Source: Dehalococcoidia bacterium (lineage in GTDB: Bacteria; Chloroflexota; Dehalococcoidia; Lucifugimonadales; UBA3495). From it: a stretch of 40,000 nt of DNA. The position numbers and the translations under genes were made by a program. Positions within the stretch are counted from its first letter, which is position 1. Each line of letters begins with the position of its first letter. Below are positions 28,792 to 34,644 of the stretch, one piece after another. The stretch spans positions 1,720,013 to 1,760,012 of the forward strand of contig OZ242009.1 in NCBI GenBank assembly GCA_965204715.1, written 5' to 3'. The notes below the pieces were generated by a model, which was given only the letters and a program-made list of their open reading frames with translations, was not told the DNA's origin and did no database searches.

Positions 28792-30474
28792 GTGACTAAC
28801 AAGTTGCTTATTTTGAACTGCTCAGAAGCTAAAAGGGAAACCGAGAAGCCGCTGCCTGCCCTCGAAGTGTACGATGGCCCTTACTATAGAGTGCTGAGAA
28901 AATACCTGCGAGAGTATCAATGGCCCGAGAACGTATCCATAAGCACTCTGTCCGCCAAACATGGGCTTATCGGCGTAATCACTGATATCCGAACATATAA
29001 CATGCGGATGAACCGTAAGCAAGCTGAGGCTAAGGCACAAGACTGCAGCAGAGTCCTACACAAGTGGGCCAGTGACCACAGCAGTGCCCACGTAGCAGTG
29101 GGCAACGAATACGCACCGGCTATCGCACCGGCGCTTCAATGCTCAGGACTTGACACTGAACACTTCCGCGGTGCCATAGGGCTCAAACAAAGTCAAGTTA
29201 AGGCGTTTCTCCATGGGCAACCCGCCAAACGCAGGGAACGAGCAGTCCCCGAGCGCAGACCCGGACCCCTGCGCTACTTTTTGCCGGACTGGGATGACCT
29301 GCTGGACCCGGGGTTTGATTTTGAAAACGACGAGTTTTCCGGCTCAGACCGGACGATGCGCGGAGACCTGCATTGCAATTCCCTGATGCAGCCAGCACCG
29401 ATGTGCGACGGAATACTGGTCAGCCTGGCGCAGCACCAGACCTCCAAGGGTCCATTGCGCAAACTCGAAGGTACTGAAAGTGCATCTCTTGCCCCGATTA
29501 GATTGAGGGAGTTTTACGGCCTCCGGGGCGGCCAAATGTTGTTCGGAGATTGCGGTGCCTTCAGCTACGTCAACGAAGAAACTCCATCAATTTCCACAGA
29601 CCAAGCCATCGCACTTTACGACCTTTACAACTTCGACATGGGAGCCTCCGTGGACCACATTCCATTCGCCGTCTTCTCCGAGGAAGAAAGGCAGCGGCGA
29701 GTGGAGATCAGTTGCCAGAACGCCGAGGAATTCATCAACGCGTGGGCCAGTCGCGGAAAGCCTTTCACTCCAGTCGGTTCTATTCAAGGAGTCAGCGCGG
29801 AACAATATGCGGAGAACGTGCAAAAGTACTACGAAATGGGATACCGCCATTTGGCAATCGGAGGGATGGTGCCGCTTAAAGACCAAGCGGTGTTGGAGAT
29901 AGTTCGGGCGATAAGTGAGACTGCCAACCGGTTGCCTCAGCAGCCTTGGATCCACTTATTCGGCATATATCGCCCCAAACTGCAACCTGAGTTCCGGGCT
30001 TTGGGAGTAGACAGCTTTGATAGCGCATCGTACTTCCGGAAGGCGTGGCTCCGTTCGGACCAGAACTACTACAGCGCAGATGGTCAATGGTACGCTGCCA
30101 TCAGGGTGCCAATGACCAAGGACCCTCGAACCCGAAAGAAATTGACGCAGACCATGGCAGACACAACTGGCTTGGAGGACCAGGAAAAGTCGGTACTACG
30201 CCTGCTAAACCAATACGGCAAGGGTACGGTCGGCGTCGACGATGTACTAGACGCGGTGCTTGCCTACGACGAGCGTTTACATCGCTCCAGCGAGATCTCG
30301 TCTATGAGGGACAAGTACCGAAGGACACTGGAGGACAAACCTTGGTTAAAATGTCGATGCACGTTTTGCAGCGAACTGGGCATCCATATCCTAATCTTTC
30401 GCGGGGGAAACCGTAACAAGCGTCGAGGCGCTCACAATACGGCTATGTTGTACGGGGGCCTAGCGGTCAGCTAA
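28792..30474 (+). CDS. Fusion protein: N-terminal DUF6884/YaaA-like domain + DpdA/TGT-like (tRNA-guanine-transglycosylase fold) domain
   Basis: - **Start:** the GTG at 28792 is preceded by GGAGG with a 7-nt spacer.
- **N-terminal domain, aa 1 to ~150:** 'LLILNCSEAKR...LPALEVYDGPYYRVLRKY...ISTLSAKHGLIG', an S-x-x-K start plus an 'ILSAKhGL' pattern.
- **TGT-fold landmarks from aa ~160:** 'FGDCGAFSY' (position of the catalytic-Asp motif DSGGFQ), 'GSIQG', 'LAIGGMVPL', 'IHLFGI' and 'VDSFDSASY'.
- **Zinc motif:** the canonical TGT motif 'CRCTFC' (30352-30369) followed by 'RRGAHN'. Confidence 0.8.
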   Translation: MTNKLLILNCSEAKRETEKPLPALEVYDGPYYRVLRKYLREYQWPENVSISTLSAKHGLIGVITDIRTYNMRMNRKQAEAKAQDCSRVLHKWASDHSSAHVAVGNEYAPAIAPALQCSGLDTEHFRGAIGLKQSQVKAFLHGQPAKRRERAVPERRPGPLRYFLPDWDDLLDPGFDFENDEFSGSDRTMRGDLHCNSLMQPAPMCDGILVSLAQHQTSKGPLRKLEGTESASLAPIRLREFYGLRGGQMLFGDCGAFSYVNEETPSISTDQAIALYDLYNFDMGASVDHIPFAVFSEEERQRRVEISCQNAEEFINAWASRGKPFTPVGSIQGVSAEQYAENVQKYYEMGYRHLAIGGMVPLKDQAVLEIVRAISETANRLPQQPWIHLFGIYRPKLQPEFRALGVDSFDSASYFRKAWLRSDQNYYSADGQWYAAIRVPMTKDPRTRKKLTQTMADTTGLEDQEKSVLRLLNQYGKGTVGVDDVLDAVLAYDERLHRSSEISSMRDKYRRTLEDKPWLKCRCTFCSELGIHILIFRGGNRNKRRGAHNTAMLYGGLAVS

Positions 30475-30493
30475 CTGTGGTCAAAGAGGGCAA

Positions 30494-33584: not shown

Positions 33585-33906
33585 ATTTCAAGAACGATTA
33601 GTTCGTGTTTCAGGTGCCGTTCCTGCCCTACGACATTAGGCATGTCCTACGGGCCACCCATGCCAGTCAGACCCATCTACGCTCTTAGATTATCGCCACA
33701 TTCAGCGACCTGTCGTCGTAGGTCACTAGGAAACCCTGGGCCAGCATCAGGTCGTAGCACTTGTCCCCTCAAAAGCCAGCGAGCAACTAATGCCTCCAAT
33801 GTTGCCCGTCAGCGGGCATCCATTGGTAGATTGAAATCATTGAACAGCATGATTAGTGCCGCTAACTGACCCTGCCAACCCAGAGCGAAAAGGAGCTAGT
33901 CCCAGA

Positions 33907-34644
33907 ATGCCTGAATACGTCGTAACACTGCTGTCGGGCGGACTCGACTCCACGACCGTGACAGCATATGCCAAAGGCCATGTCGAGCATATTTCCGCAA
34001 TCACCTTCTACTACGGGCAGACTCATTCCAAGGAGGTCGAATGCGCGGCCCAAGTAGCCGGCATCATGGGTATTCAGCACGAAATGCTCGACATCTCATT
34101 TCTGTCGAGAATAGCCTGGTACTCAGCGCTGACCAATCCCGATCGCTTTCCAGTGCCATTGGACCGATCCGTGGGGGCGATAGGTTATGGGGTCCCGATT
34201 ACTTACGTTCCCATGCGCAACACCATATTCTTATCATTGGCCACGGCTTACCTCGAGAGCCTAGTGCTGCACTCCATCGAGATGGAGGGAATTGAAGCCT
34301 CCAGCATCGCCGCGTCAGTGTACTTGGCTCCGAACGCCCTCGACTACAGCGGATACCCAGACTGCCGCCCGGAGTACTACGAGGCGATGAAGAGAGCGTT
34401 GGACCTCGGAAGCAAACTTTGGACTGAATACGAGGTCCCCATCAACATAGAAACGCCAATCATTGACCTGTCAAAGGCGGAGATAGTAGCTCTCGGGATG
34501 AAGCTGGGAGCCCCGTTGGAATACACCTGGAGTTGCTATGAGGGTGGAGAGATTCCCTGCGGGTCGTGCGACAGTTGCGTTCTGCGGGCCAAAGGGTTCG
34601 CTGAAGCCGGAATCCCAGATCCTTTACTAGAACGCCTCCGCTAA
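33907..34644 (+). CDS. queC: 7-cyano-7-deazaguanine (preQ0) synthase QueC
   Basis: An ATG at 33907 is preceded by AAAGGAG. The track ORF opens at the GTG at 33856. The translation has the PP-loop 'LLSGGLDSTT', 'ITFYYGQTHSKE', 'YVPMRN', 'DYSGYPDCR' and the Zn site 'WSCY...CGSCDSCVLRAKGF'. It is collinear with canonical QueC apart from a ~10-aa insertion ('LHSIEMEGIEASSIAA'). Confidence 0.9.
   Translation: MPEYVVTLLSGGLDSTTVTAYAKGHVEHISAITFYYGQTHSKEVECAAQVAGIMGIQHEMLDISFLSRIAWYSALTNPDRFPVPLDRSVGAIGYGVPITYVPMRNTIFLSLATAYLESLVLHSIEMEGIEASSIAASVYLAPNALDYSGYPDCRPEYYEAMKRALDLGSKLWTEYEVPINIETPIIDLSKAEIVALGMKLGAPLEYTWSCYEGGEIPCGSCDSCVLRAKGFAEAGIPDPLLERLR

Follow-up and report, generated by a model that had tools for sequence, protein, structure and literature searches.

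In the bacterial Dpd system DpdB is a ParB/DndB-like (DGQHR) ATPase required for insertion of preQ0, and DpdC, a DUF328/DUF6884 protein of about 318 amino acids (aa), converts dPreQ0 to dADG. The full set of genes, dpdA-K, is reportedly known through the work of Thiaville in 2016 and Yuan in 2018 on Salmonella Montevideo. According to one account (PMC10164549), no known restriction-modification system is larger or more complex. In phages the DpdA1-4 systems have a DpdA that works without DpdB, and are linked to queC, queD and queE (Hutinet 2019; Cui 2023, PMC10516641). Here we are concerned with a 40,000-nt stretch of contig OZ242009.1 (assembly GCA_965204715.1, positions 1,720,013-1,760,012), referred to as the window and numbered from its own start. 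At 28792-34644 it carries four intact and closely packed open reading frames (ORFs), all on the forward strand, whose profile matches have hidden Markov model scores far above chance. They encode a DpdC-like::DpdA fusion (ORF1), a UvrD-type helicase, a Cas4/AddB-type nuclease and QueC. We think that they form a compact two-module, DpdB-less restriction-modification cassette of Dpd type within a defence island, and on the sequence evidence we put the probability of this at about 60%. The original prediction for the locus, of a candidate minimal 7-deazaguanine modification-restriction system, is in its central idea well supported by comparative genomics.

The cassette shares with the bacterial Dpd system a DpdA of the bacterial subfamily with the same catalytic triad and zinc site, a domain of DUF6884, the family to which DpdC belongs, linked preQ0 genes and, within a mobile island, a modification module adjoining a putative restriction module, and relatives at two of the loci discussed below (L124 and L091) have a full dpdC-dpdB-dpdA set next to a helicase-nuclease pair of the cassette type. 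It differs in having three core genes where Dpd has 11, in a DpdC-like part that is only about 150 aa long and fused to DpdA, and in the absence of DpdB and of DpdD-K (the SNF2 protein DpdE, the YprA/DEAD helicases DpdF/J, the PLD nuclease DpdK and a BrxC-like protein). The restriction candidate is instead one superfamily 1 (SF1) UvrD helicase with one Cas4-type nuclease. The absence of DpdB and DpdD-K was part of the original prediction and is borne out by profile scans and tblastn: there is no DndB/ParB match among the window ORFs, tblastn with the Enterobacter and L124 DpdB queries found nothing in the window or in loci L001-L080, PADLOC has no Dpd match in the window besides DpdA, and DpdD, DpdK and DpdE gave no tblastn match in the window. 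The original statement that none of the other Dpd genes is present as a separate gene holds, but the DpdC-like domain fused in ORF1 was overlooked.

The phage DpdA1-4 systems resemble the cassette in the lack of DpdB and the linkage to queC, queD and queE, but the window protein falls in the bacterial DpdA equivalog and is coupled to a helicase-nuclease pair. The 'BRIGADE' and BREX-related tRNA-guanine transglycosylase (TGT) systems (preprint 10.1101/2025.09.15.676423; PMC12839542) also combine a 7-deazaguanine module with a different restriction or effector set. However they are built on YprA-family helicases and PLD nucleases, or on HerA/FtsK-STAND components, and none has a UvrD and Cas4-type pair or a DUF6884::DpdA fusion; for the HerA/FtsK-STAND TGT system no DpdB or DpdC homologue was reported (PMC12839542). 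Full-text literature searches turned up no report of a DpdA-UvrD-Cas4-type cassette or of the fusion, in agreement with the original remark that the architecture was not recognised as a described one, with an earlier mention still possible. The GATOR-GC survey (10.1101/2025.02.24.639861) required dpdB, and would thus have missed a DpdB-less cassette.

ORF1 (28792-30474, forward strand; 560 aa) has a GTG start with GGAGG 8 nt upstream. Its DpdA (DNA-guanine transglycosylase) domain, aa ~158-560 (29263-30474, forward strand), takes ORF1 past the NCBIfam DpdA equivalog NF041059 (364.6 bits, cut-off 200), gives 344 bits with the PADLOC DpdA model and matches the crystal structure of Salmonella DpdA (PDB 7UI4) at E=4.3e-70, whereas the tRNA-TGT equivalogs are failed (TIGR00430 at 18.8 bits vs 306.75, TIGR00432 at 50.4 vs 350). 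An AlphaFold2 model of ORF1 (pLDDT 88.3, pTM 0.87) compared by Foldseek has a TM-score of 0.85 to 7UI4 and about 0.5 to tRNA TGT structures. The catalytic residues of the Salmonella enzyme were shown or proposed by Gedara et al (PMC10164549), and of these D95, D130 and the nucleophile D256 correspond to D253, D288 and D410 in ORF1, with G206/G207 corresponding to G357/G358. The two motifs singled out in the original prediction, FGDCGAF with its Asp and the zinc motif CRCTFC, lie at aa 251-257 and 521-526, and the zinc site comprises C521, C523, C526 and H548. All of these mapped catalytic, GG and zinc residues are invariant in our alignments of 20 and 75 sequences. Judged by family membership, fold and active-site residues, ORF1 is a genuine DNA-type bacterial DpdA and not a tRNA enzyme, in line with the dpdA-like label first given to it. 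NCBI already labels such fusion proteins 'tRNA-guanine transglycosylase DpdA'.

To call ORF1 simply dpdA-like, as was done at first, is right as far as the transglycosylase goes but misses an N-terminal domain of about 150 residues. This domain, aa 1-~145 (28792-29226, forward strand), matches DUF6884 (PF21818) at 38.9 bits against a cut-off of 30. The Pfam curators describe DUF6884 as distantly related to YaaA and as having conserved CxxxK and LSAxxG motifs (PMC11701544); DpdC was first filed under DUF328/YaaA (PMC5699537) and is the DUF6884 protein of dpd islands in the GATOR-GC preprint. In the same two alignments as above C10xxxK14, Y27xG29 and L53-S54-A55-x-x-G58-L59 are invariant. As reference for canonical DpdC we took the protein from an Enterobacter dpd plasmid together with its collected family (a 69-sequence profile). 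The enterobacterial DpdC also matches PF21818, and the canonical full-length protein of 318 aa, which begins 'MSNINLITTCTNGK...', has CxxxK exactly at positions 10 and 14, followed by LYKGG and then SAGxGL in the same order as in ORF1. The AlphaFold2 model of the domain has pLDDT 92.6. By family and motif the N-domain is a short DpdC-like domain, but not a DpdC orthologue, and ORF1 is on this basis a DpdC-like::DpdA fusion, in which a DpdC-like function is probably present.

The helicase (724 aa; 30494-32668, forward strand) begins 19 nt after ORF1, and the nuclease (301 aa; 32679-33584, forward strand) follows after 10 nt; the four genes and both gaps are as first reported. The helicase is a superfamily 1A (SF1A) protein of UvrD type, with Pfam matches to UvrD-helicase (1.4e-50) and UvrD_C, a Walker A GTGKT and a DEYQD motif, and its nearest solved structures are UvrD, PcrA, UvrD1 and AddA. 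The nuclease is of the RecB family, PD-(D/E)XK (Pfam PDDEXK_1 7.7e-19), and has no match in a sequence search against solved structures. In an 18-sequence alignment its catalytic residues D154, E168, D171-Y-K173 and Q191xxxY195 are invariant, as is the 4-Cys signature C...CX2CX5C of the Cas4/AddB Fe-S type (C34, C277, C280, C286). The motifs indicate that both the SF1 helicase and the Fe-S RecB-family nuclease are intact. Neither protein reaches the equivalog cut-offs for UvrD, PcrA, Rep, AddA, RecB or Cas4 (AddA, TIGR02785, on the helicase 129.6 bits vs 707.65; Cas4, TIGR00372, on the nuclease 19.1 bits vs 65), and family scans of the cassette genes and their seven nearest neighbours gave no other Cas match.

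With regard to known motor-nuclease systems, the pair has in common with AddAB, AdnAB, RecBCD and Cas4 the SF1A UvrD-like motor and the RecB-family nuclease with CX2CX5C plus an N-terminal Cys, D-ExK and QxxxY. However the nuclease is not fused to the helicase but separate, a second helicase-like subunit is lacking, and the pair is obligately linked to DpdA and not to repair or CRISPR genes. The best matches of the helicase in defence databases are the GajB-type UvrD helicases of Gabija (PADLOC 111 bits; PDB GajB 1.8e-10), but that match covers the generic SF1 core only, the cassette has no GajA (OLD/TOPRIM) partner, and its nuclease is of PD-(D/E)XK type.

The original prediction asked whether the four genes are linked in unrelated genomes. 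This proved to be so for the fusion, helicase and nuclease, tested in both directions, but not for queC, which occurs close to the cassette in about a sixth of the loci. Homologues of the fusion number 1,770 database proteins at E<=1e-10, the top 120 all full-length, and 318 matches were confirmed by tblastn (E<=1e-3) among 185,579 species-representative genomes. Neighbourhoods were counted for the best 80 loci of the 318, which come from more than ten phyla and include Chloroflexota, Latescibacterota, Planctomycetota, Acidobacteriota, Poribacteria, Bacillota, Pseudomonadota and others. In these 80 loci a UvrD-type helicase adjoins the fusion in 68 and a PD-(D/E)XK nuclease in 66; they are the only widely kept neighbours, and nearly always follow the fusion directly, on the same strand. 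The reciprocal test used 80 metagenome loci seeded with the nuclease, with only informative loci counted: a helicase was adjacent in all 53 and a DpdA homologue present in 28 of 30.

The helicase-nuclease pairs are of two types, type 1 (that of the window) at 40-86% identity to the window pair with a nuclease of about 300 aa, and type 2 at about 27% identity with a nuclease of about 390 aa. In ten loci there is a HerA ATPase with a partner of about 650 aa, and in four Poribacteria loci a HerA/NurA pair, in each case instead of or besides the UvrD pair. Three loci have an orphan fusion gene without a partner pair. Several of the nuclease-seeded loci have an unfused DpdA of about 425 aa, with either a separate DUF6884 gene of about 150 aa, similar to the N-domain of the fusion at E 1e-21 to 1e-38, or a canonical module. 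Pairs of the same helicase-nuclease family are found beside canonical dpdC-dpdB-dpdA modules in L124, L091, L140 and L157: the order in L124 is helicase-nuclease-DpdC (326 aa)-DpdB-DpdA-DpdB-QueC-QueE, and the L091 DpdC and DpdB are 27% and 50% identical to the Enterobacter proteins. In L162 (5721-14224) type 1 and type 2 pairs lie in tandem, followed by a reverse-order DpdA::DUF6884 fusion (575 aa, C-terminal DUF6884 at 64.6 bits), and L121, which has a type 1 pair, carries at 55-2220 an independent 721-aa fusion of the canonical (long) DpdC type to DpdA. Fusions in both orders are Rosetta-stone evidence that DpdA and DUF6884/DpdC act together. In the sampled loci the short DUF6884 type and the canonical DpdC type never occur together, and DpdB is found beside canonical-type DpdC, or where the contig stops before DpdC would be visible, and never with the short type. 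The cassette is thus a member of a modular family with two helicase-nuclease types and with HerA/NurA, unfused, reverse-order and canonical dpdCBA forms.

Pairwise identities in the 61 complete loci show how the parts have evolved. Helicase and nuclease identities are strongly correlated (Spearman 0.90, Mantel p=0.001), whereas those of fusion and helicase are almost uncorrelated (rho 0.11). Among fusion pairs more than 65% identical, 64 of 123 carry different helicase types, and in L060 and L062, for instance, fusions of 90% identity go with helicases of 27%. The helicase and nuclease have evolved closely together but have been exchanged freely against the fusion, which suggests that a mark-writing module is evolutionarily decoupled from an effector module. 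This is as expected for modification and exchangeable effector modules that meet through DNA and not through a protein interface.

Some further proteins were seen around the family. The ~650-aa partner of the HerA-like ATPase (cluster c4; L012 11610-13544 and nine other loci) has no Pfam match and is always paired with that ATPase (DUF87), the two genes separating the fusion from the UvrD helicase; it may be a divergent NurA-like nuclease. Cluster c6 (L036 8961-9914 and nine other loci) is a protein of about 317 aa, also without Pfam match, that adjoins the cassette in different phyla and could be a further accessory component; a HAD-family hydrolase occurs in five loci and adjoins the c6 protein in three. 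Plasmid and phage collections yielded no full-length fusion, and none of 50,697 phage records contains the fusion. The cassette was found in only two of 2.9 million IMG/VR contigs, both classed viral, L164 (143 kb) with the fusion and a type 2 pair, and L168 (86 kb) with an unfused DpdA and a type 1 pair. Plasmid p_TS293_6 of Deinococcus taeanensis (L082, 4975-6945) has a divergent 656-aa DUF6884-TGT fusion with 25% identity in the TGT part, annotated only as 'DUF6884 domain-containing protein' and situated upstream of annotated dpdE and dpdF.

The fourth gene of the window cassette, queC (33907-34644, forward strand), passes the QueC equivalog TIGR00364 (189 bits, cut-off 150.3) and Pfam QueC (1.3e-62), and its translation includes the motif 'CYEGGEIPCGSCDSC', the C-terminal zinc-binding Cys cluster. 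By these measures the window QueC is a bona fide preQ0 synthase. The mechanically defined ORF starts at GTG 33856, and the 245-aa gene call on L083, an independent 58.7-kb metagenome contig that we compared with the window by blastn, corresponds to a start at ATG 33907, which is most likely the true one. The gap to the nuclease is then 322 nt, in keeping with the 320 bp first reported, and a Rfam search of it for a preQ1 or other riboswitch gave nothing at the gathering threshold or at E<=1. Among the 80 genome loci QueC is near the cassette in 13, QueD in about ten and a YhhQ-type preQ0 transporter in eight, with at least 23 of the 80 having one of these genes nearby, and QueE was seen in several metagenome loci. 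As it accompanies only about a sixth of the loci, QueC is accessory and not core, and is interchangeable with or accompanied by QueD, QueE or YhhQ.

We suggest that the system would work as follows. The modification module would be the single ORF1 protein, whose DpdA domain is predicted to replace guanine in host DNA with preQ0, without the aid of DpdB as in the phage DpdAs, this last point resting on the absence of DpdB from the locus. The linked QueC would provide the preQ0, and the host would contribute FolE, QueD and QueE. Homology, motifs and the complementary distribution of the short and canonical types suggest that the N-domain converts dPreQ0 to dADG, with Cys10 possibly attacking the nitrile and Lys14 assisting as a catalytic pair. 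With a DpdC-like domain joined to DpdA, we predict that the end product is dADG and not only dPreQ0. The restriction module would be the UvrD-type helicase with the Cas4/AddB-type Fe-S nuclease, acting as an ATP-driven translocating nuclease that degrades unmarked DNA, and the two modules would communicate by means of the DNA mark and not a co-evolving protein interface. We infer the restriction role from architecture: the pair fills the slot of DpdD-K in canonical islands, is exchangeable with other motor-nuclease pairs, and in the window lies in a defence island. As it also occurs beside DpdB-containing modules, it is not merely a substitute for DpdB.

A more specific form of this proposal is a three-gene DpdB-independent system, in which the fusion writes preQ0 and then ADG and the AddAB/Cas4-like pair is sole reader and effector, perhaps with the mark as a Chi-like stop. 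We hold this version tentatively, at somewhat less than even odds. It is a speculation that a processive degrading motor might take the deazaguanine mark as a Chi-like 'self' signal to stop.

There are several points that weigh against the two-module cassette as we have described it. Salmonella DpdA is inactive without DpdB (PMC10164549), and DpdB-independence here is therefore an assumption. H181 of Salmonella DpdA is Gln332 in ORF1 (~29785-29787), the sole difference among the mapped residues, and base specificity could for this reason differ. The N-domain is matched only remotely to DpdC: hhalign gives E=0.19 with the single protein and a weak E=0.005 over 40 columns with the 69-sequence profile, so that the similarity can be claimed at family and motif level only, and the PADLOC DpdC model gives E=0.05, as for a remote relative. 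The domain also does not have the C-terminal ~170 residues of DpdC, and Foldseek of its model against PDB found no significant match (best 2Q07 at E=3e-3, with YaaA not retrieved). Finally, although the defence-island context of the window is clear, PADLOC gave scattered defence matches only among 110 genes that flank the cassette at other loci, and from so sparse a set family-wide enrichment cannot be claimed.

The alternative that survives best, although in our view unlikely, is a machine for modification only, in which the helicase replaces DpdB as DNA-opening ATPase, the nuclease deals with abortive intermediates or abasic sites, and there is no restriction. DpdB is indeed missing wherever the short DUF6884 type occurs, the DpdB ATPase might give helicase-like DNA opening (PMC10164549), and dpdAB(C) islands without a restriction operon exist. 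However a pair that stood in for DpdB would not be expected beside the modules with one or two copies of DpdB in L124, L091, L140 and L157, nor would free swapping of pair types relative to DpdCA and substitution by HerA/NurA pairs fit well; the invariance of the nuclease catalytic and 4-Cys residues and the existence of orphan DpdCA genes without a partner pair also count against it.

A Type IV-like defence, with the TGT domain recognising or excising 7-deazaguanines in phage DNA for the helicase-nuclease to degrade, is considerably less probable again. The chemistry of TGT enzymes is a reversible base exchange, and glycosylase defences against 7-deazaguanine phages, such as Dag1 and Dag2, are known (preprint 10.1101/2025.10.29.685425). 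Yet the recurrent linkage to QueC, QueD, QueE and YhhQ implies that the base is needed as a substrate, ORF1 falls in the bacterial DpdA equivalog, and the same family of effector pair occurs with canonical self-modifying dpdCBA modules. We rate marginally lower the idea of an AddAB-like pair for recombination or repair that is simply carried along with an enzyme modifying DNA or tRNA and has no part in self/non-self discrimination. It would accord with UvrD, PcrA and AddA being the nearest solved relatives of the helicase and with the report that YfjM, a DUF6884 member, binds damaged DNA (PMC11701544), but the helicase falls far short of every repair-helicase equivalog cut-off, membership of tRNA-TGT is rejected, the pair is almost never found without a nearby DpdA (present in 28 of 30 informative loci), and the cassette is patchy across phyla and located here in an AT-rich island with Tiamat, CBASS and an integrase as neighbours. 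Last, we reject the reading of QueC and the TGT-like gene as Cap9/Cap10 accessories of the neighbouring cyclic oligonucleotide-based antiphage signalling system (CBASS) operon as a type IV CBASS, which the CBASS cyclase and Cap17-like effector 4 kb downstream and a weak PADLOC QueC match (78.7 bits) might bring to mind, because QueC passes the housekeeping QueC equivalog and ORF1 that for DpdA, the CBASS genes run in the opposite direction and are separated from the cassette by an unrelated 3.4-kb Tiamat gene, and homologues of the cyclase, the Cap17-like protein and TmtA are found in none of the 160 other cassette loci.

The two-module cassette, which we prefer to all of these, sits in a variable defence island, as can be seen by comparing the window with L083. 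The block from 28139 to 40000 is 99% identical in the two, with the junction at 9348 in L083, but to the left of it the window has a XerC/XerD-like tyrosine integrase (27036-28070, reverse strand; Pfam Phage_integrase 5.4e-24), immediately adjacent and outside the cassette, whereas the otherwise identical L083 lacks the integrase and has TIR/ThsB-like genes and a methyltransferase. The 28139 junction beside the integrase could be a recombination or insertion junction. The G+C content falls from 0.60-0.66 to 0.50-0.56 at about 28 kb, confirming the AT-richer island of the original prediction. That the island is integrase-bounded holds for the left side only, as its right end lies beyond the window. 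We found no tRNAs in the window that could delimit it; a terminator scan gave counts no higher than in shuffled sequence and promoter counts were only slightly higher, both uninformative.

Between the junction and ORF1, within the block shared with L083, is a small ORF for a ribbon-helix-helix (CopG/RelB-like) protein (28244-28525, forward strand) that is not kept in the 80 genome loci tested and may be a local regulator or orphan antitoxin. Downstream of queC PADLOC identifies a Tiamat TmtA gene and then a CBASS operon. The TmtA homologue (34861-38241, forward strand; 1126 aa; PADLOC 381 bits) directly follows queC and has a sacsin-like ATP-binding N-domain and a NOV_C-like C-terminus. The CBASS operon has a 280-aa Cap17-like_N effector (38677-39519, reverse strand) and an oligonucleotide cyclase (39535-40000, reverse strand) that runs off the end of the window. 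Elsewhere in the window, all on the reverse strand, there are a protein of 3550 aa (6564-17216), probably a giant surface adhesin, in which at least 17 cadherin-type repeats are accompanied by Big_9 and fn3 domains, a DDE_5 transposase-like ORF in the high-GC part (17723-18562), and a multidomain protein of 1739 aa (21312-26531) that combines two GT2 glycosyltransferase regions with a class I methyltransferase domain.

Dpd-type chemistry is apparently coupled here to only two effector proteins, in hundreds of species of more than ten phyla, most of them uncultured. The cassette would offer a minimal setting in which to study the sensing of a 7-deazaguanine mark and to see whether DpdA works without DpdB, and it could reveal the role of the short DUF6884 domain, a widespread family with a conserved Cys/Lys motif. 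Several of the carriers are cultured, which makes functional testing feasible; they include Pelotomaculum terephthalicicum JT (L016), Ammonifex thiophilus SR (L054), Desulfothermobacter acidiphilus 3408-1 (L061) and Planctomycetales bacterium 10988 (L036). If the three-gene proposal is correct, this would be the first minimal and experimentally tractable model for the reading of deazaguanine marks, and interchangeable pairs, UvrD/Cas4 of types 1 and 2 and HerA/NurA, would all plug into the one mark.

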